Origin: Candidatus Micrarchaeota archaeon
Lineage (GTDB): Archaea; Micrarchaeota; Micrarchaeia; Norongarragalinales; UBA97
Assembly: GCA_016217775.1 (NCBI GenBank)
Contig: JACRGG010000036.1
Location: 1-24,237, forward strand
Direction: 5' to 3'
DNA: 24,237 nt
Numbering within the stretch: position 1 is the stretch's first letter; each line of letters opens with the position of its first letter. The position numbers were made by a program, and so were the translations under genes. Below, one piece after another: positions 1,024 through 22,960 of this stretch. The notes beneath the pieces are model-generated. The model made no database searches. It was not told the DNA's origin and was given only the letters and a program-made list of their open reading frames with translations.

Positions 1024-1410
1024 TTGGCGGAACTAGAGTTCAAGCAAATACTATTGGCGTCAAGCGTGCTCGCGCTCTTCCTCCTCTACGCCCTGCCAAA
1101 AACCGGTTCGGCAAGCCTTCTTCCAATCGAGTTGGCAAACGCGAGCGCGTATTTGAACCAAAACGTTTTCGCGCAGGGAAAACTAACCGCGATTAAGGCA
1201 AACTCCAATCCGGCAAGCCCAAACTCCGCCTTAGCCACTGGGTTGTTGTGCGCGCAGAAAGCCTGCCTGAAAACCGTCTTCACAAAAAACGTCAACCCGG
1301 CGCTGCTGCCGAAGAAAGGCGCGTGGCTAAAAGCTCGGGGGAAAATAAGCGCGTACGGCGATTCAATCGCGCTGTACGTTTACTCAAGCGCCGACTACGA
1401 GGCGAGCTGA
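1024..1410 (+). CDS. Membrane-anchored/exported OB-fold protein (putative nucleic-acid binding)
   Basis: N-terminal hydrophobic segment ILLASSVLALFLLYAL, then an OB-fold-like strand pattern: NVFAQGKLTAI...GAWLKARGKISAYGDSIALYV. TTG start is uncertain. Confidence 0.65.
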   Translation: MAELEFKQILLASSVLALFLLYALPKTGSASLLPIELANASAYLNQNVFAQGKLTAIKANSNPASPNSALATGLLCAQKACLKTVFTKNVNPALLPKKGAWLKARGKISAYGDSIALYVYSSADYEAS

Positions 1411-1434
1411 TCCTTGGACGGGGCGAGCTAAGGT

Positions 1435-2604
1435 TTGCTAGCCGAGTTTCTCCAAGGGCTGTTGCTTGGCGCAACGGGATTAATCCCGTTCTTCCACACC
1501 AACCTGGCGATAGAATTGTTCAAGCCAAGCGGGTTTTTTTTCGTAACCGTCGCGTCCCTATCATTCTCGCATTTGGTTTTCGAGTCAATCCCCTCGATTT
1601 TTCTCTTCACTCCGACCGACTCCCAGCCAATCAGCGCAATTCCGGCGCAATCCCTGGCAAGGCAGGGAAAAGCGCTTTACTCCCTCAAGCTAGTCCTCGC
1701 CGCCCTATTCGCGTCCGCGCTTTTTTCAATCCTCTTACTCCCGTTCTTCTCGATTTTACTCCCCCCAATTTTCAACGCCGTGCGGCCGTTTACCGGCATC
1801 GCGTTAATCGCAGTAATTGCGGCAGTCTTCTTCCAAGAGTGGAAGTCGAACTCATTGCTAAAATTCGCGGCATTGTTTTCCCTCTCCGGCCTGCTTGGAA
1901 AAATCGTCTTCGACACTCCGCTCTCCAACCCTCTCTTCCCCCTGTTAACCGGATTGTTCGCCGTGCCGGTATTGCTTGAATCAATTTTCTCAAGTCACAA
2001 CCAAAAACCAGCCGCCAAGGACCAAGACGATTCCTTCCCGAAAATTTCCTTCCCGCTGATTTTCGCGGGCGTGCTCCTCGGCGCGCTATCCGGTTTGCTT
2101 CCGGCGCTTAGCCCGTCTATGATAGCAAGCGTTGCTTACTTGTTTTTCTCCAGCCAGCCGGCTACCTTCCTCACGCTTTCAACCTCGATAATCTGCTCGA
2201 AGCTATTCTACGATTTTTTCTACTCGATTTTTTTGCACAAGGCGCGCTCCGCCCCCGCGGCGCTGCTTGCAGGCGCGAATCTAACCAGCCGAGACTTCCT
2301 CCTCCTTGAAGTAACCGCGGTCGCCGCAATAGCCGCAAGCGCGCTATTGCTGCTTTTGTCCGCAAGAAAACTATTGCTGTTCTTCAACCGCATCGGCGAA
2401 AAAGTTTTTTCAGCATCCATACTCGCGTTGATCCTATTTTGGCTTTATTATTCGCAAGGCGCGCCGGGCTTGTTCGCTTTAACCGCGTGCGCGCTAGTAG
2501 GCCTGCTGCCGGGGCAATACGGGGTGAAAAAAAGCGCTTGCACCGGCGCGCTAATCCTCCCCACAATCGCGTATTTTATTCCGGCAATCCCCTATTTTAT
2601 GTAG
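1435..2604 (+). CDS. TctA/DUF112-family polytopic membrane protein (archaeal tripartite tricarboxylate transporter permease-like)
   Basis: 389 aa, hydrophobic throughout (roughly 10 or more TM segments). Family-like motifs GATGLIPFFHTN, FESIPSIFLFTP, LFPLLTGLFAVP, GALSGLLPALSPS; the half-repeat GLIP/GLLP pattern is typical of TctA/AbrB-like folds. Confidence 0.75.
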   Translation: MLAEFLQGLLLGATGLIPFFHTNLAIELFKPSGFFFVTVASLSFSHLVFESIPSIFLFTPTDSQPISAIPAQSLARQGKALYSLKLVLAALFASALFSILLLPFFSILLPPIFNAVRPFTGIALIAVIAAVFFQEWKSNSLLKFAALFSLSGLLGKIVFDTPLSNPLFPLLTGLFAVPVLLESIFSSHNQKPAAKDQDDSFPKISFPLIFAGVLLGALSGLLPALSPSMIASVAYLFFSSQPATFLTLSTSIICSKLFYDFFYSIFLHKARSAPAALLAGANLTSRDFLLLEVTAVAAIAASALLLLLSARKLLLFFNRIGEKVFSASILALILFWLYYSQGAPGLFALTACALVGLLPGQYGVKKSACTGALILPTIAYFIPAIPYFM

Positions 2605-2636
2605 CCTTAAAAAACTGGGGTTGCGTAATCCCTTTT

Positions 2637-3053
2637 ATGAAAAAAGCCCAGTTTTCCGTCGAAGCGGTCCTAGTCTTTTCCGCGCTCACCGTGTCAATAA
2701 TATTCCTCGCGAATTACGCCTCGTCGTACGCGAAAACAAGCGAGTCGGTATCACTCTCCGCTTACGAGAAGACGATTTTGGAAAACGCGGCGGTGCTCTC
2801 CGACGCCGCGTGCGCGAGGGGCGAGAAGCTCTCGTTTCCAATCCAATGCATTAGCGGCCAAAATGGCGGGGGGCAAACAATTTACCTCTCCGGTCAGCCG
2901 GGCAACAAGCTGGTAGTCGCGTCAAGCGACTTGGAGAAAAACTTTTCCATAACAACCAACTGCGCCGTCACGGGGACAATCCCGTTAAGCTGCCAAAGCT
3001 TTGCGTGCTTCAACGCGCAAGGCGGTTCAGTATTATTGCAGGAAGGCTGTTGA
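2637..3053 (+). CDS. Class III signal-peptide (type IV pilin-like) protein 1
   Basis: Start reassigned to ATG 2637; the upstream part of the track ORF overlaps the previous gene. N-terminus MKKA/QFSVEAVLVFSALTVSIIFLA has basic residues, a G/A cleavage site, Q+1, E+5 and a hydrophobic helix. Six Cys. CTTAAA box at 2606-2611. Confidence 0.8.
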   Translation: MKKAQFSVEAVLVFSALTVSIIFLANYASSYAKTSESVSLSAYEKTILENAAVLSDAACARGEKLSFPIQCISGQNGGGQTIYLSGQPGNKLVVASSDLEKNFSITTNCAVTGTIPLSCQSFACFNAQGGSVLLQEGC

Positions 3054-3090
3054 CTGACAAAATATGATTAAAGAAAAAGGTTTTTTGCCG

Positions 3091-3438
3091 ATGAAAACGT
3101 TTTTTGGAAGAAAGCGCGGGCAGCTGCTCTCCGCGGACGCGGTAATAGCGCTGCTAATCGCGTTTGCAGCCATCGGAGTGCTCGCCAACGCATTGGATTC
3201 GACTTCGCGCGCCGCAACCGGCTTTAGCCAGTACAATCCAAGCGCGTTCGCGGCGGAATCGCTTGTCAACGGCGAATCAGTTGACTTAAGCGGCAAGTGC
3301 TTCAAGTACTCGAATGGAACAAGCACGTGCGCGTCGTTTTTTTGCCCCGTTGGCTCGCCTAACACTTTCGTCTCAAAACGATTGGCGGCCTGCCTTACGA
3401 GCGGCTACTGCCTGTTGGAGGTGCGCTCGTGCGCCTGA
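3091..3438 (+). CDS. Class III signal-peptide (pilin-like) protein 2
   Basis: MKTFFGRKRG/QLLSADAVIALLIAFAAIGVLA; six Cys; NGT sequon. Alternative ATG at 3064. Confidence 0.75.
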   Translation: MKTFFGRKRGQLLSADAVIALLIAFAAIGVLANALDSTSRAATGFSQYNPSAFAAESLVNGESVDLSGKCFKYSNGTSTCASFFCPVGSPNTFVSKRLAACLTSGYCLLEVRSCA

Positions 3439-3839
3439 AGGGATTCGCATTGACTGCCGACGCGCTCGTCGCCATAGCAGCCGCGTTTTTAATAATCGGA
3501 GCCGCGGCGACTGTCTCGAATTACCAAAACACCCTCCTGCAGGAACTGCCCCTGCACGCGCTAGCCCGCGATTACCCCGAGCTGAACTACTATTCCCTCC
3601 AGCCGATTACCCCGCTTGCATTCAATCAGCTCACCGGGTTTTCAATAACTCAAGCCGCGCCAACGCCAAGCCCGGCTAGCCCAAAAAATTATTACTCCGC
3701 GTCATTAAGCCAGCCTAGTCCCGCGTGCCCGGCTTGCTCGGACGACGGCTTGAGCATCAGCTGCTCTTCCAGCCAATTATCCTGCTTTGGTTCCTTCGAC
3801 ACGCAAATAAGCGTCAAGCGGGTTTGGGTGAGCAAATGA
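3429..3839 (+). CDS. Class III signal-peptide (pilin-like) protein 3
   Basis: MRLKG/FALTADALVAIAAAFLIIGAAA; four Cys; GTG start overlaps the previous gene by 10 nt. Confidence 0.72.
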   Translation: MRLKGFALTADALVAIAAAFLIIGAAATVSNYQNTLLQELPLHALARDYPELNYYSLQPITPLAFNQLTGFSITQAAPTPSPASPKNYYSASLSQPSPACPACSDDGLSISCSSSQLSCFGSFDTQISVKRVWVSK

Positions 3840-4813
3840 TTTTACGCCAACGAATGAACAAAGGGTTTTTCTCGCCAATCATAATAGCGCTTGCAACAAT
3901 CACCGCGCTCGCGCTGCTCTCAACGGTATTCTCTGCGTCAAACTCGAACAACGCGCTGTTAACGGCAGTAGAGTCGCAGAAAGTCGCCGACAAGGCGGCC
4001 GACTACTCGAACGCCTTGGACTACGCGTTAATGGAATCCTTGCTTGACTCCGCGTACTCAATACGCGGGTGCGCGCCAACGCCAGGCGATTACTGCGCGC
4101 TTTCTCAAACCAAATTCGGCGATTACTCTGCCGCGCTCTCGCAGCAGCTCTCGGCGGACAGCGTTAACGCTAGCACGGGGGTAATCTCGTACCCGCCCTG
4201 CTCGGACTTTAAGGCAAGCGAGAACCTCGGGTTTTCCGAGTCAATCTCCTTCGCCTATTCCGCAAATCCCCAAGTCTACTCGACGCTCGCGTCGAAGGCA
4301 ATTCCAAAAAACCCGTCTGTCATCGCAAGCGCGTTCAACAACCCCAACTCGTTTGGATTCGTCTTCCGCGATTCCAGCCAGCAAAACTTTTTGCAAACAG
4401 GGCAAGGCGCTACTATCTCAAACCCGGCTTTAAGCCCCTTGCTTGACCCAAGCACGGCAACCGAGGTAATTCTGCCGGCAAGCCCGGATCCGTACTCGTT
4501 TGTCGTCGATATGACTGGAACGTCCGCGTTGCGTGAAATAAACGCCGTAGTTTCCTTCCACAACGCCCAAGCGGGCTCGAACCAGAGGGTAACAAACTTG
4601 GTTGTTGAAGCATCGCAAGATAATTCCGTTTTCCAAATTGTTGTTCCCTCAACAAGCAACCCTCCTGGCGTGTCGGTATTTACTTTCCCACCCGTAACCG
4701 CGCGTTACCTTAAGTTCACTTACTCGAAAGTCGTCGGCAGCCCCACTGGAGCCGGCGTGACTAAAATCGGGGCATTCACTTCGCTGAAAGCCTACTTCGC
4801 CTCCTGCACGTGA
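3836..4813 (+). CDS. Large pilin-like protein/adhesin with a C-terminal discoidin (F5/8 type C)-like beta-sandwich
   Basis: The ATGA overlap with the previous stop fixes the start at 3836 (or 3854). N-terminus MNKG/FFSPIIIALATITALALL. The C-terminal third has FVVDMTG...LVVEASQDNSVFQ...TFPPVTARYLKF, typical of discoidin/galactose-binding-like domains. Four Cys. Confidence 0.72.
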   Translation: MILRQRMNKGFFSPIIIALATITALALLSTVFSASNSNNALLTAVESQKVADKAADYSNALDYALMESLLDSAYSIRGCAPTPGDYCALSQTKFGDYSAALSQQLSADSVNASTGVISYPPCSDFKASENLGFSESISFAYSANPQVYSTLASKAIPKNPSVIASAFNNPNSFGFVFRDSSQQNFLQTGQGATISNPALSPLLDPSTATEVILPASPDPYSFVVDMTGTSALREINAVVSFHNAQAGSNQRVTNLVVEASQDNSVFQIVVPSTSNPPGVSVFTFPPVTARYLKFTYSKVVGSPTGAGVTKIGAFTSLKAYFASCT

Positions 4814-4973: not shown

Positions 4974-5579
4974 ATGGTCTTGCTTAAGCGCGTCGCGCTT
5001 ATAGTCGTAGTCATCCTAGCAATAGCAATCGCGTACTCGTTCACCTCTAAAGCGCAGTCGGTTGCAACCGCCGCGGACGCAAAGGCGATAGTCTTGGAAG
5101 ACCTCAAGTCCGACCCCCTCTTCTCCGCCAACGGGTTGTACAGCGTTTATTCAATAGAGTACCTCAACTCGAGCGGCCAGTGGGAGGTCAAGACGAAAAT
5201 TACGTTAAGCCCGCACTCGGCGTGCCCGCAAGTCTACCTGCGCGACTACAAGCTTTTGCCGATAAGCCCTAGCTTAAACAAGCAAGTCGTGAAAGACTGC
5301 ACCGCCAACACCCCCCTAGCGCTCCCCGAAGAGGCGATAATCGCGTCCAAGGACTTGATTCAAGTCAAGGCACTCTCATCCCCGCAAGCCTGCGGCTACT
5401 CCCTCCCGCTAAACCCTGTTGACGCCGCCGAGTACTGCCCCTTTGCCGACTACGCGCAATTAAGGCAATTCGCCGACTCGCTGCAATCCAACGCGCGCTT
5501 TGTAACAGAGTGGCGCTCTAACCAAACAATACTGCGCATCGCACTAGACGAAAACGCGAACGTATTGTCAGTGCAGTAA
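4974..5579 (+). CDS. Membrane-anchored extracellular hypothetical protein
   Basis: N-terminal KR plus hydrophobic anchor VALIVVVILAIAIAYSF; four Cys; NSS and NQT sequons. The C-terminal RIALDENANVL is reminiscent of PepSY-like ends (weak). CTTAAA boxes at 4925 and 4936. Confidence 0.7.
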   Translation: MVLLKRVALIVVVILAIAIAYSFTSKAQSVATAADAKAIVLEDLKSDPLFSANGLYSVYSIEYLNSSGQWEVKTKITLSPHSACPQVYLRDYKLLPISPSLNKQVVKDCTANTPLALPEEAIIASKDLIQVKALSSPQACGYSLPLNPVDAAEYCPFADYAQLRQFADSLQSNARFVTEWRSNQTILRIALDENANVLSVQ

Positions 5580-9559: not shown

Positions 9560-9636
9560 TTATTGTTTGCTTGTTTTTTGCCTATTGCTTATTCTCTACC
9601 AATACCCTTAAATATATCTTTGTTATCTTTGTTATC

Positions 9637-9906
9637 ATGGTTGACGTGTTTATCCGCAATGTTGACGAAAAAATCTACCAAAGGTTTAAATCCCGCGCCG
9701 CGCAGGAGGGACTTGGCTTGGGCGAGGCTTTCGGCCAAATAGTCGAGAAGGGCACTTTCGAGAAGAAAGGCGCTGCCGGCTGGCTGGCCCTTCCTAAATT
9801 AAAGCTTGGAAAATATGCGAGCAGGAAAATTGATGAAATAGTCGGGGAAGAGATGCTGGATGATTATAATAGATACAAGCGTTCTGGTAGCAAGCGTAAA
9901 CGCTGA
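9637..9906 (+). CDS. vapB: Antitoxin, FitA/VapB-like ribbon-helix-helix
   Basis: Start reassigned to ATG 9637: MVDVFIRNVDEKIYQRFKSRAAQEG matches the FitA-like RHH pattern. It lies directly upstream of and overlaps a PIN gene. CTTAAA box at 9607-9612. Confidence 0.75.
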   Translation: MVDVFIRNVDEKIYQRFKSRAAQEGLGLGEAFGQIVEKGTFEKKGAAGWLALPKLKLGKYASRKIDEIVGEEMLDDYNRYKRSGSKRKR

Positions 9907-10228
9907 TGAGGACGACTATGAAGAGGCTGTAGGGAAGCTAAATGCCGCCACCTCGTCTGGAGAATCCCAATTCATTACTTACGGGGTATTAGTGGAGCTG
10001 GCTGGCGTATTGTCTAGAAAAAACGGCAAGGAGTTTGCCGCAGAATATGTTCAAAAAGTTTTTGAAAACTTCAGTATCCTGCCTGCATCCGACATCGGCC
10101 AAACAATCGAGTTTTTTCAATCAAGCTATAGAAAACTCAGCCTAGTGGACTGCGAGGTAATCCTCGCCTCAAGGCAACACGCAGCCAGCGTATTATCGTT
10201 GGACAAAGAACTGCTTAAGGCGCTTTAA
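9860..10228 (+). CDS. vapC: PIN-domain ribonuclease toxin (VapC-like)
   Basis: IIIDTSVLVA, VLVELAGVL, LSLVDCEVI and LSLDKEL supply the acidic PIN active-site residues; 122 aa. Confidence 0.9.
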   Translation: MIIIDTSVLVASVNADEDDYEEAVGKLNAATSSGESQFITYGVLVELAGVLSRKNGKEFAAEYVQKVFENFSILPASDIGQTIEFFQSSYRKLSLVDCEVILASRQHAASVLSLDKELLKAL

Positions 10229-18866: not shown

Positions 18867-20294
18867 ATGCCCGCGCAATTAAAGCACGCTTACCCCTTAA
18901 GCGATTACGCCTACTCGCCAAACGAGCTTACGGAGAGCGAGAGGAAGGAGTTTGCGGCGCTTAAGGACTTTTTCTTGAGGAAGAAAACAGTTTCAGACAT
19001 TTCCGCGGCGATTCCCGACTCCGCTAGGCAAAAGGCGTTGTTGGACTTGCAGCACGAGCTCTCGTTAAACGCGCCGAACACCCCGCTTGCAACCGACGAC
19101 AAGAAGCGCTTTGAGCAAAGCCTCTCGCAAATAAGCTCTAGCACTAAAGTCGCGAAGGCGGTCTTGGACGACTTGTACGGCTACCGCGTGATACAGCCTT
19201 TAATGGACGACGAGGGGCTTGAGGAAATAATGGTTAACGGCCTAGAGCCGATTCTAGTCTACCACCGCCAACTGGGGTTTTGCAAGACGAACCTGTTTTT
19301 CCAAAACGACTTGGAGTTAAGCAAGTTCACCGCCCAGCTCACTCCAATCGGCGGCAAGCAGCTTGAGGACATTAAGATGGCTGACGGCAGCCGGTGCAAC
19401 ATAGTCTTTCCTCCAAGCAGTTTGCAGACGACGGTTACGATAAGAAAATTCAAGAAACAGCCTTTCAGCATCCTCGACTTGATTAAAAACCAGACGATTA
19501 CCCTAGACTTGGCGGCGTTTCTATGGGCGGCAATGGATGGAATGCTGTTGTACCCGATGAACATCCTCGTAGTTGGCGGGACGGCGAGCGGGAAGACGAC
19601 TACGCTAAACGCGTTAAGCACTTTCATCCCCCCAAACGAGCGCATCATAACGATTGAGGACAGCCTCGAGTTGAGTTTCCTCAACCGCCAAAACTGGGTG
19701 AGGCTCGAGGCGAAGAAAAGCTCGCTTGAGGAACTCGTGAAAAACTCGCTTCGAATGCGCCCCGACCGTTTAGTGGTTGGCGAAGTGCGCGGGTCGGAGG
19801 CTGAAATGCTTTTCACCGCGATGAACGTGGGGCACCGCGGAGTGCTCGGCACCCTCCACGCGAATTCAGACCGCGATGCGATAACAAGGCTTGAAAACGC
19901 GCCGATGAACGTGCCGCGCGCGCTGATTCCCCTAGTCGACATTATTCTAGTCCAGCACCGCATTTTGGACAGGCGAAAGGGATTAGTCAAGCGCGTGACT
20001 CAAGTGAGCGAAGTATCGCGCATTGAGGACAAGATTGCGCTCAACGAGATTTACTCGTTTGACATTACCGCAGACTCGCTAAACCGCACTGCGCTCCCCT
20101 CGCAAACCCGCGAGAAGCTCGCCAAGGCCATCACCATCCCGCAATCCGAGGTTGACGCCGAGATTGGAAAGCGCCGCGAGTTATTGTCTTATATGCTCGA
20201 GAAGGGAATCACCAGCCCGCAGCACGTGAACTTATTTATGGAAAAATACTACGCGGAAGTAACCCCAAAGCCGGTGCAGCGCGACTCGGATTAA
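18867..20294 (+). CDS. Type IV pilus/secretion ATPase (CpaF/TadA/VirB11 family)
   Basis: LEEIMVNG, TVTIRKF, Walker A GGTASGKTT, ITIEDSLEL, LRMRPDRLVVGEVRG and His box GHRGVLGTLHAN. Confidence 0.93.
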   Translation: MPAQLKHAYPLSDYAYSPNELTESERKEFAALKDFFLRKKTVSDISAAIPDSARQKALLDLQHELSLNAPNTPLATDDKKRFEQSLSQISSSTKVAKAVLDDLYGYRVIQPLMDDEGLEEIMVNGLEPILVYHRQLGFCKTNLFFQNDLELSKFTAQLTPIGGKQLEDIKMADGSRCNIVFPPSSLQTTVTIRKFKKQPFSILDLIKNQTITLDLAAFLWAAMDGMLLYPMNILVVGGTASGKTTTLNALSTFIPPNERIITIEDSLELSFLNRQNWVRLEAKKSSLEELVKNSLRMRPDRLVVGEVRGSEAEMLFTAMNVGHRGVLGTLHANSDRDAITRLENAPMNVPRALIPLVDIILVQHRILDRRKGLVKRVTQVSEVSRIEDKIALNEIYSFDITADSLNRTALPSQTREKLAKAITIPQSEVDAEIGKRRELLSYMLEKGITSPQHVNLFMEKYYAEVTPKPVQRDSD

Positions 20295-20404
20295 ATCCTA
20301 TGGCGGCTGCTTTGGATTGTTTGCCTCGGGAATTCCTAGAAAATGCCTTCGTTGGAAAGCCTTAAAACCAGCGCGTATTATTATCTTTCCTTAGTGGCAT
20401 TACG

Positions 20405-21253
20405 ATGAAAAAAACCGTTTTAACCGCATTTTTTCTAGCCCTTGCCTTCACCGCATTGGGCTCAAGCTCGTACATTAAAATAACCGACCCCGTTTTCGCG
20501 CAAATAAATTCGGGCGCTGCCGCCTCCGATTCCATAAGCTTAGGCGTTGCCGGCCCGGGGCAAACACTGGAGTTAACCGCCGGCACTGACACGGGGGAGC
20601 AAAGCGCGAACTTGTCGACCGAGGGGAAAATCGCGAATTGGAATGTTCTTAGGATAATCCCCTCTTCACTTCCAAGCGGGTGGATGAATGAAGACAGCCA
20701 GGAATTCTCCTCGCCGATGAAAGCGCGCGTGATAATCCCGAAGAACGCCGCTGACGGCGAGTACTCGTTCACCGTGCAGGCGGTGGACAACTACGAGGGA
20801 GTCGCACCGCTGTCGTTTAAGGCCAAGGCTATCGTCTCAAAAGACGTCTTTGACTTTCGCCTCTCGTCCGACCCGGTTAAAGTCGCGGTAGGCCAAAAAG
20901 CTGTTTACTCGTTCGAGCTGTTCAACAAGGGCTCCGCGAGCGACGTGTTCGAGTTGAGCACGATTGGATTGCCCGAGCAGTATTCCGTGAAGAAAACCGT
21001 TTTCGTCCCAAAGGCGAGCAAGGCAACCGAATCAATAGAGCTAAGCTTCCGCGAGCCGAAGGAATACCCCGTGACGTTTAGCGCGGTTTCCCTATCCGGC
21101 CCCGCAATCAACGGCGTTCAGAAGGCAACATTGTTCGTCGGCAGCGACTTTGTTTCAGAAGCCAAGGCTGCCGGGCGCGGAGTGCTGTTGTTCCCAAGCG
21201 CGGAAAACGCCTTGTACTCAATCATTTCGTTTTTAGCCAACTTGCTGTTCTAA
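20405..21253 (+). CDS. Secreted/cell-surface protein with Ig-like (NEW3/CARDB-like) domains
   Basis: Signal peptide MKKTVLTAFFLALAFTALGSSS, beta-rich repeats (GEYSFTVQA; FELFNKGSASDVFELSTIGLP) and a hydrophobic C-terminus ALYSIISFLANLLF. Confidence 0.7.
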   Translation: MKKTVLTAFFLALAFTALGSSSYIKITDPVFAQINSGAAASDSISLGVAGPGQTLELTAGTDTGEQSANLSTEGKIANWNVLRIIPSSLPSGWMNEDSQEFSSPMKARVIIPKNAADGEYSFTVQAVDNYEGVAPLSFKAKAIVSKDVFDFRLSSDPVKVAVGQKAVYSFELFNKGSASDVFELSTIGLPEQYSVKKTVFVPKASKATESIELSFREPKEYPVTFSAVSLSGPAINGVQKATLFVGSDFVSEAKAAGRGVLLFPSAENALYSIISFLANLLF

Positions 21254-21382: not shown

Positions 21383-22960
21383 ATGGTTTCAACTGGCGAA
21401 GCGGAGTTAACTAAGCAATTCGCGCGCGACTTGTTCAAGGCAATAGGCGAAGGGCTGGAGAGGAAAAAACTCGATTCGTTCAAGCGCGCGGCGTGCGCGA
21501 GGCTTCATTTGCCCAACGCGCCGAAAAACCACGTGCTGCTGCACTTCGCGCCTAAAAACAAGAGGGAGCTCTACAAAAGCGTGTTGATGAAAACCCCGAT
21601 GCGTAGTTCCTCCGGGGTGAGCGTGGTTGCGGTGATGCCAAAGTACTTCCACTGCTATGGATTATGCACTTACTGCCCGACTAGCTCCATCGCGCCGAAA
21701 AGCTACACTGGATACGAGCCCGCCGCCCTGCGCGCGCGCCACAATGATTTCAACGCGTTTGCCCAAGTCCGCTCGAGGCTAAAACAGTTTATTGAAAACG
21801 GCCACACGCCCTCCAAGTGCGAGCTAATCGTGATGGGCGGAACTTTCAACGCATTCGCGCCTAAATACCAAAACGAGTTTGTCAAGGACTGCTTTGACGC
21901 GTTCAACGCGAAAAAAAGCGCGACCCTGGCGCAGGCGCAAAAACTCAACGAGAAATCAAAGCACCGCGTAATCGGCCTGACGTTTGAAACGCGCCCCGAT
22001 TGGGCGGGCAGAAAGCAAGTAAGCGCCTTATTGGACTTTGGCGCGACGCGAATAGAGCTGGGCGTCCAGACTCTCGACGATGCGGTGCAAAAAAAGACCA
22101 AGCGCGGCCACGGGTTGAAGGAAACAATCGACGCGACGAAAAACGTGAAGGACGCGTTCTTGAAAGTCGGCTACCACGTGATGCCCGGGCTTTACTCAAC
22201 GCCGGGAAAAGACGCTTTAATGGCGAAAAAGCTTTTTTCAAACCCCAATTTGCGCCCGGATATGCTGAAAATCTACCCCGCGCTGGTGATTGCGGGAACG
22301 GCGTTGTTTGATGAATGGCGGCTAGGGTAATTTACTCCTTATTCGACTCAAGAAGCGGCGCTGGCAATAGCGGGAATGAAGAAATTCGTTCCGCCGTACT
22401 GCCGCATAATGCGCGTCGACCGCGACATTCCAACCCACCAGATTTCAGGCGGGGTGAAAAACCTTAATTTGCGCGAGCTCGTGCAAAAAGAATGCGCGAA
22501 TACGGGAATCGTCTGCCAGTGCATCCGCTGCCGCGAAATCGGGCTGAACGAAGTCAAAAACGGGCGAAAGCTAGACTGGGCTTCGCTGCGCCTGGAGACG
22601 ATAAAGTACGGCGCGAGCGGGGGAAAAGAGTTTTTCATCCAGCTAGTCGACGATGCCAACTTGCTCGCGGGATTTTGCAGGCTGCGCTTTCCCCGCGAAA
22701 CGTACAGGCCGGAGTTGGATTCCACGACCGCGGGCGTGCGCGAGCTGCGCGTTTTCGGCACTCAAGTGCCGGTGGATGAGAAAATCGAGAAAGCAGCGCA
22801 GCACAAGGGGCTTGGGAAAAAATTATTGGCGAAAGCAGAGGAAATCGCGGGCGAAAACGGGTTTGAAAAACTCGCCGTCACATCGGGGGTGGGCGCGCGC
22901 GAGTACTACAAAAAACTAGGGTTTAAGCAAACGGGCGCTTACGTCGTAAAACGCCTGTAA
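21383..22960 (+). pseudogene. elp3: Elp3 tRNA U34 acetyltransferase (radical SAM + GNAT), interrupted by one in-frame TAA at codon 316
   Basis: RSSSGVSVVAVM, CYGLCTYC, KCELIVMGGTF, ETRPD, RIELGVQ and PDMLKIYP, then TAA 22328-22330. The same frame resumes FTPYSTQEA...RIMRVDRDIP...CQCIRCREIG...VRELRVFG...QHKGLGKKLL. The read-through product would be 525 aa. Confidence 0.88.

Follow-up and report, generated by a model that had tools for sequence, protein, structure and literature searches.

How DNA passes across archaeal membranes is an open question, archaea being without ComEC, and one genetic study points to a pair of proteins, one with an OB fold and the other TctA-like. The same question is raised by a gene cluster on a contig of 24,237 nucleotides (C123, GenBank JACRGG010000036.1; 'the window' below is this whole stretch) from the 861-kb genome of a Candidatus Micrarchaeota archaeon. 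Here, genes for an OB-fold protein (g1) and a TctA-like membrane protein (g2) are followed in the same direction by four genes for pilin-like proteins (g3–g6) and by a seventh gene (g7). Do they serve the import of DNA, the pilus itself or contact with a host, or does a carboxylate transporter simply lie beside pilins? The answer favoured here is that g1 and g2 are likely to be the Micrarchaeota counterparts of the transformation pair of Methanococcus maripaludis, and that they form one envelope module with g3–g6 and probably g7. The genome is 72% complete; the absences of TctB, TctC, ComEC and a nuclease reported below are therefore provisional.

The pair in question was found when transposon mutants of M. 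maripaludis were screened for loss of natural transformation. The screen recovered pilus genes as well as the adjacent genes MMJJ_13020, encoding an OB fold with one helix, and MMJJ_13030, encoding a TctA-like protein that has 11 helices (Fonseca et al., 2023; PMC10133366). In-frame deletion of either gene abolishes transformation and complementation restores it; type IV-like pili are likewise essential, and a TctA-like homologue is also essential in Methanoculleus thermophilus (PMC10133366). The authors suggested that this TctA-like protein is the DNA transporter so far missing in archaea, and reported the family to be present in Thermococcus kodakarensis, Pyrococcus furiosus and Methanothermobacter (PMC10133366). 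The term 'TctA-like' was not found in the other literature searched. The present analysis adds folds, families, gene order and co-occurrence to a requirement for such a pair, and for pili, that genetics has established elsewhere. The OB/TctA-like transformation pair was thus known already; its operon-level tie to pilins in a DPANN archaeon is new.

The OB-fold and TctA-like proteins

All seven genes run in one direction between positions 1024 and 5579, with spacings of −10 to +32 nucleotides and a gap of 160 nucleotides before g7. An earlier note on this DNA, made from the sequence alone, had described positions 1024–4813 as six co-directional, tightly spaced genes for a membrane-anchored OB-fold protein, a TctA/DUF112-like protein with no tctB or tctC partner in the window and four proteins with class III signal peptides. 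On rechecking of the coordinates all six genes are present as described, and the three descriptions of their products are borne out by the results given below. The cluster should, in addition, be extended to include g7.

The first gene, g1 (1024–1410, plus strand), encodes 128 amino acids with an N-terminal membrane helix at about residues 6–23, an OB-fold domain and a cysteine pair, C76 and C81. The window's own g1 is matched by no Pfam or NCBIfam model, and a jackhmmer search seeded with this divergent sequence returned no match, so that a family profile was needed. This profile (A1) derives from an alignment of 20 members encoded just 5′ of TctA-like genes, g1 among them, in which an N-terminal hydrophobic helix recurs and C76, C81 and G106 are invariant. 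Scanned singly, 14 of the 20 match PF01336, a nucleic-acid-binding OB fold, with a best E of 2.5e-10. Ten of the 20, the window's g1 not among them, weakly match DUF4131 (PF13567; best E 0.002).

An AlphaFold2 model of g1 on the A1 alignment (mean predicted local distance difference test score, pLDDT, 76.9) has one helix followed by a five-stranded barrel. Its best Foldseek matches in the PDB are the anticodon-binding OB domains of AsnRS, AspRS and LysRS, followed by Stn1, ExoVII and PriB. Together, the family matches and the model argue that g1 is an OB-fold protein held in the membrane by a single helix. C76 and C81 flank a hairpin, a placement that would suit an extracellular disulfide.

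The second gene, g2 (1435–2604, plus strand), starts 24 nucleotides after g1 and encodes a polytopic membrane protein of 389 amino acids, the short archaeal TctA-like (DUF112) form. It matches Pfam TctA (PF01970) with E 5e-26 over profile positions 7–421 of 423, and is the sole TctA-family gene in the genome. With the DUF112 protein of T. kodakarensis it aligns end-to-end (28% identity, E 7e-33), and profile–profile comparison of the two families gives a probability of 100% over 385 columns. A profile search of 1.84 billion cluster representatives yielded a wider family of 2499 members; the best 150 of these are all 331–418 amino acids long, and the named ones among them (ten representatives) are from DPANN archaea. 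Many Thermococcales genomes (G250–G310) carry, at a separate locus, a second, longer TctA paralogue with frames of 445–540 amino acids, which matches the short-form profile at E ~1e-43.

The AlphaFold2 model of g2 (pLDDT 91; predicted template modelling score, pTM, 0.90) found no match in the PDB with Foldseek, and searching the PDB sequences with a profile was of no help either. With an exhaustive structural aligner the top match is Yellow stripe 1 (YS1) of barley (PDB 7wsr), a member of the oligopeptide-transporter (OPT) family, with Z 12.1 over 250 residues, a root-mean-square deviation of 4.8 Å and only 9% identity. The next row on the list has Z 6.7, and the TRAP and INDY carriers have Z ~5. 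The comparison hints at a relationship between the TctA and OPT folds; it is a lead, not a family assignment, the Z being below the level trusted for helical bundles.

The family name itself suggests an explanation that leaves DNA aside, namely that g2 is an ordinary subunit of a tripartite tricarboxylate transporter, as in the TctABC system for citrate uptake in Salmonella, and lies beside pilin genes by chance. The protein belongs to the same Pfam family as TctA and passes the Pfam threshold, and in public annotation its relatives are tripartite tricarboxylate transporter permeases. Its would-be partners are missing, however. TctC (PF03401) has no match in the genome, and TctB (PF07331) has only a sub-threshold one, which falls within a T2SSF-like frame of a different contig (15.9 bits; cut-off 29.1); neither is found at the locus in any of the 32 relatives examined. 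In contrast to the TctA of Salmonella, g2 is short and has an OB-fold partner and pilin neighbours; archaeal TctA-like proteins have up to 11 helices, against up to 12 for bacterial TctA (PMC10133366).

Linkage of the pair to pilus genes

The phylum was searched in 201 genomes of 0.7–1.6 Mb. A TctA-like gene, almost always single, is present in 98 of them; in two GTDB families it was not found (0 of 56 and 0 of 35 genomes). Strong matches to the OB family, defined as E up to 1e-8 with the A1 profile, occur in 49 of the 201 genomes, each of which also has the TctA-like gene; none occurs in the two families in which that gene was not found. Of the 49, 45 share the strand of the TctA-like gene and end within about 250 nucleotides upstream of it; three lie 0.6–1.6 kb upstream, and the remaining one stands alone at a contig end. 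Weaker matches to the profile are OB domains of frames the size of aminoacyl-tRNA synthetases. Two genomes flagged as unpublished (G029 and G198) enter these tallies as weak cross-matches only, and no specific claim rests on them.

Within the same order, loci were examined in 16 genomes from five GTDB families, 15 of them informative in that downstream DNA is present. In each of the 15, and to the extent that the contigs allow, the TctA-like gene is succeeded by homologues of g3, g4, g5 and g6 in unchanged order and orientation, the g3 orthologue always lying directly 3′ of it; g7 comes after g6 in 10 of the 11 long loci. The proteins share only 25–40% identity. Because gene order is kept at such identity in 15 of 15 genomes, the linkage is not due to chance, and a tricarboxylate transporter subunit that merely adjoins pilins has become highly improbable, close to refuted. 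The earlier note had likewise suggested something other than a citrate transporter beside pilins by chance, and had named conserved linkage of archaeal DUF112/TctA genes to OB-fold and class III pilin genes as a check; the linkage holds, with the OB gene upstream in 48 of 49 cases and the pilin-like genes downstream in all informative loci.

The relatives also reveal what precedes the pair. Reading from the 5′ end, their loci contain a prepilin peptidase (Peptidase_A24, E 3.4e-11; Arc_PepC, E 1.7e-6), two pilins with a QxSxE motif, a membrane protein of 170–175 amino acids, the OB gene and the TctA-like gene. The 170–175-residue multi-helix protein, encoded in the interval from the major pilins to the OB gene (L032–L041, e.g. 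L033 6103–6627), is not matched by Pfam, and tblastn did not find it in the present genome. YdjM/DUF457, considered as a third partner, was not found in this genome, and the relatives' protein does not match it. In other orders of the class, the pilin genes are missing from the locus and the OB/TctA-like pair is kept.

Similar pairings occur outside the phylum. In a Nanoarchaeota-labelled archaeon, the TctA-like gene shares 4 nucleotides with a gene that encodes a 116-residue PF01336 protein bearing a helix at its N-terminus. In Thermococcales, an N-terminally anchored protein of about 385–400 amino acids overlaps the start of the DUF112 gene in 30 of 30 loci; N-x-S/T sites abound in this protein, and it matches the OB profile weakly and repeatedly. 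In one Thermococcus locus (L052 3067–6116), a KaiC/RadA-like ATPase gene (PF06745) lies directly 5′ of the genes for the ~390-residue protein and DUF112.

Methanobacteria carry a DUF112 gene in 117 of 121 genomes. With 5-kb flanks, 19 of 20 loci have it 1–4 kb upstream of a same-strand T2SSE ATPase gene, and in 17 of these 19 a T2SSF platform gene follows the ATPase; the count of 3 of 30 obtained with flanks of 1.5 kb is an artefact of the short flanks. There is usually one gene between DUF112 and T2SSE (L111 7090–10995; L112 2901–8211; L143–L161). As these genomes are kin, they count as one further lineage and not as nineteen. The pair is, then, physically linked to pilus genes in two unrelated lineages.

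This linkage fits an uptake of DNA that is coupled to pili, and it fits equally a role of the pair in pilus function. According to the latter explanation, which is the main rival to DNA import, the OB-fold and TctA-like proteins build, anchor or operate the pilus, and transformation is lost indirectly when they are deleted. The position of the pair in Micrarchaeota, between the peptidase and major pilins on one side and genes resembling minor pilins on the other, speaks for it, as does the adjacency of DUF112 to the pilus ATPase and platform in Methanobacteria. The pair is, however, retained with no pilus gene nearby in the other orders of the class, in Thermococcales and in the Nanoarchaeota-labelled archaeon. 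Two surveys of archaeal type IV filament systems name neither a TctA-like nor an OB-fold component, and an OB fold of the nucleic-acid type is not an obvious part of a pilus. On balance, a purely pilus-related function appears rather unlikely.

Pilin-like genes, g7 and their surroundings

The four genes after the pair encode proteins that each begin with a short basic N-terminus and a G or A, followed by a family-specific motif and a hydrophobic helix of about 20 residues. In the first, g3 (2637–3053, plus strand; the start ATG is at 2637, not 2634), the predicted class III signal peptide is MKKA/QFSVE, of the QxSxE type (the slash separates the two parts of each motif). In g4 (3064–3438, plus strand; alternative ATG at 3091) the motif is RKRG/QLLSAD, the family motif being K/R-G-Q-L-F-S-x-D. 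The next gene, g5 (3429–3839, plus strand), overlaps g4 by 10 nucleotides and has MRLKG/FALTADAL (family motif K/R-G-F-x-F-T-x-D-A-L). The start of g6 (3836–4813, plus strand; alternative ATG at 3854) overlaps the stop of g5 in ATGA, and its motif is NKG/FFS. In the orthologues, from up to 15 genomes, these signals are kept as QxSxE (g3), QLFSxD (g4), FxFTxDAL (g5) and FFS (g6).

None of g3–g6 is matched, at E values up to 1, by curated Pfam or NCBIfam models of pilins or archaellins, which often fail to detect divergent pilins. Judged from motif and helix, g3–g6 are pilin-like proteins with predicted class III signal peptides. A natural comparison is with the Epd pili of Methanococcus, whose EppA-type class III signal peptides carry a QxSxE motif after the cleavage site. 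In the same manner, g3 and the two upstream pilins of the relatives carry K/R-G/A-Q-x-S-x-E-F and then a hydrophobic helix, and the relatives have an A24 prepilin peptidase with the archaeal C-terminal domain in the same operon. The motifs of g4–g6, in contrast, are their own.

The C-terminal part of g6 (about 4493–4729) is a match to F5_F8_type_C, the discoidin or F5/8 type C domain (E 5.4e-7; bit score 30.2, with the cut-off at 28.2). The domain is restricted to the g6 of this genome, the orthologues being 185–225 amino acids long and too short for it. The product of g6 gives the impression of a pilin-like protein to which a head of the sugar-binding type has been added, perhaps for contact with a host or a surface.

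Such a head invites the explanation that the locus is a module for host contact and nutrition, in which the pilins and the g6 head attach the symbiont and the pair imports an oligosaccharide, an oligopeptide or a small solute rather than DNA. Micrarchaeota, with their small genomes, are known to depend on hosts, oligosaccharides are among the ligands of OB folds, and the closest structural match of g2 belongs to an oligopeptide-transporter family. Several observations point the other way. The discoidin domain is special to one genome, the g1 family matches the nucleic-acid-binding PF01336 and not sugar-binding OB families, and the pair is also common in free-living archaea. Moreover, its sole experimental phenotype is the loss of DNA uptake (PMC10133366). 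A module of this kind is accordingly distinctly unlikely.

The last gene of the cluster, g7 (4974–5579, plus strand), encodes 201 amino acids with just a plain N-terminal membrane anchor. In relatives it is found by tblastn with E down to 1e-21; in the Atlas it falls into uncharacterised archaeal clusters only, with a weak PepSY lead (0.75). The gene also follows the TctA-like gene in five pilin-less genomes of other orders (including L047, L048, L017 and L042). Because it stays beside the pair in orders that have no pilin genes there, g7 may be a third core partner of the OB and TctA-like proteins.

Further pilus parts are dispersed over the genome, namely two Peptidase_A24 genes (contigs C5 and C66), T2SSF genes on four contigs and, in the window, a secretion ATPase of the PilB/FlaI type (18867–20294, plus strand; Pfam T2SSE, E 3.9e-37). 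The latter lies 14 kb downstream, outside the contiguous cluster, and is a possible motor of the pilus. No platform gene follows it (window 18867–21253); the next gene, which has no Pfam match, encodes 282 amino acids that include a signal peptide and, at the C-terminus, a hydrophobic anchor.

The cluster itself is bordered on its 5′ side by a divergent gene for an AAA-type ATPase, and on its 3′ side by housekeeping genes for Pelota, a GatB-type protein, NurA, Rad50 and the CCA-adding enzyme. Elsewhere in the window, a gene for a ribbon-helix-helix antitoxin-like protein overlaps a PIN-domain gene (9571–10228), likely a toxin–antitoxin pair. An Elp3-like gene (radical SAM and GNAT) is split into two consecutive frames, 21383–22330 and 22376–22960, with the Radical_SAM_C domain divided between them; the cause could be a frameshift, an error of sequencing or a genuine split.

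A candidate module for DNA import

The resemblance of g1 and g2 to MMJJ_13020 and MMJJ_13030 extends over several levels. In both cases the genes are adjacent and in the same order, with that for a small single-helix OB-fold protein preceding that for a TctA-family protein. M. maripaludis, too, is without ComEC, TctB and TctC, and employs type IV-like pili in the same process. The organisms differ in the arrangement of the remaining genes: in M. maripaludis, epd and eppA lie elsewhere on the chromosome (tags 08xxx and 10xxx, as against 13020/13030), whereas here four pilin-like genes directly follow the pair and, in relatives, the peptidase and major pilins precede it.

A more distant parallel is that with ComEC and the competence pili of bacteria, which follow the same logic of a pilus, an OB element at the membrane and a polytopic membrane protein. 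DUF4131 is the N-terminal region of ComEC, consisting of a helix and an OB domain, and the weak matches to it in half of the g1 family, with the best at an E of 0.002, are what suggests the analogy. Here, by contrast, the OB domain and the permease are separate proteins, and the membrane protein is of an unrelated family, TctA. The Competence domain of ComEC (PF03772) has no match in the genome at E 0.01, and the metallo-beta-lactamase nuclease domain is absent.

On this basis a mechanism can be proposed. Major pilins, encoded on contig C66 in this genome and in the same operon in relatives, would be processed by the prepilin peptidase and assembled into a type IV-like pilus, on which g3–g6 may act as a priming or tip set. 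The pilus would capture extracellular DNA; the membrane-anchored OB domain of g1 would receive the nucleic acid at the membrane, and g2 would carry it across, whole or in fragments. A small-genome archaeon would in this way gain nucleotides as well as genes. The outward orientation of the OB domain, the binding of DNA by g1 and DNA as the substrate of g2 are what we infer. A competence-like machine composed of pilus, OB receptor and transporter was also what the earlier note had put forward; the conserved linkage and the genetics of M. maripaludis lend it support, and the idea itself has already been published (PMC10133366).

A number of observations weigh against DNA import by this module. 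A text search of the M. maripaludis study for statements on piliation or electron microscopy of the two mutants came up empty (PMC10133366), which leaves room for the pilus-related explanation. The orthology of g1 and g2 to the M. maripaludis genes would rest on family, size, copy number and layout rather than on direct alignment; the end-to-end alignment of g2 with the DUF112 protein of T. kodakarensis, a species named in the same study (PMC10133366), supports it indirectly.

Other points concern the proteins themselves. The charges that flank the helix of g1 do not fix the orientation of the OB domain by the positive-inside rule. Among family members the net charge of this domain lies anywhere between −7 and +6, and that of g1 itself is +6 (isoelectric point 9.5), so that a conserved basic face for DNA binding is not evident. 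TctA is a family of carriers, and the g2 model resembles carriers (YS1/OPT, TRAP and INDY) and not a known polymer channel. A nuclease of the staphylococcal type was not found in the genome.

The distribution of the genes raises a third set of difficulties. In one large GTDB family (f16), 36 of 37 genomes carry the TctA-like gene and this OB partner is lacking, and in Methanobacteria no A1-type OB gene adjoins the DUF112 gene. In the present genome, the prepilin peptidase and two pilins are apart from the window cluster, on contig C66 (2319–461, minus strand), where an unrelated gene comes next. With this set split off, the window holds only the second half of the ancestral operon.

With these points taken into account, counterparts of the transformation pair in a common module with the pilin-like proteins remain the likely identity of g1 and g2. 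A bolder, joint claim can be advanced more tentatively. One operon in this order of Micrarchaeota may hold every envelope part of a ComEC-independent machine for DNA import, namely the prepilin peptidase, the major pilins, the small membrane protein, the OB receptor, the TctA-like translocator, four minor pilins and g7; DPANN archaea with reduced genomes may use it to scavenge nucleic acids, and the TctA-like fold, possibly related to OPT, may be a second, independent way of moving oligo- or polynucleotides. Taken as a whole, this is possible, though somewhat doubtful.

For archaea in general, the comparative result adds independent support to the view that the pair works with type IV-like pili, because in Micrarchaeota it is joined to pilin and peptidase genes, and in Methanobacteria to those for the pilus ATPase and platform. 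The operon form found in Micrarchaeota suggests which pilin-like proteins may partner the transporter. The candidate system is thereby extended to DPANN archaea, which, to judge from their small genomes, may depend on nucleotides from outside, and provides a concrete set of genes for how these organisms may obtain nucleic acids and exchange genes.

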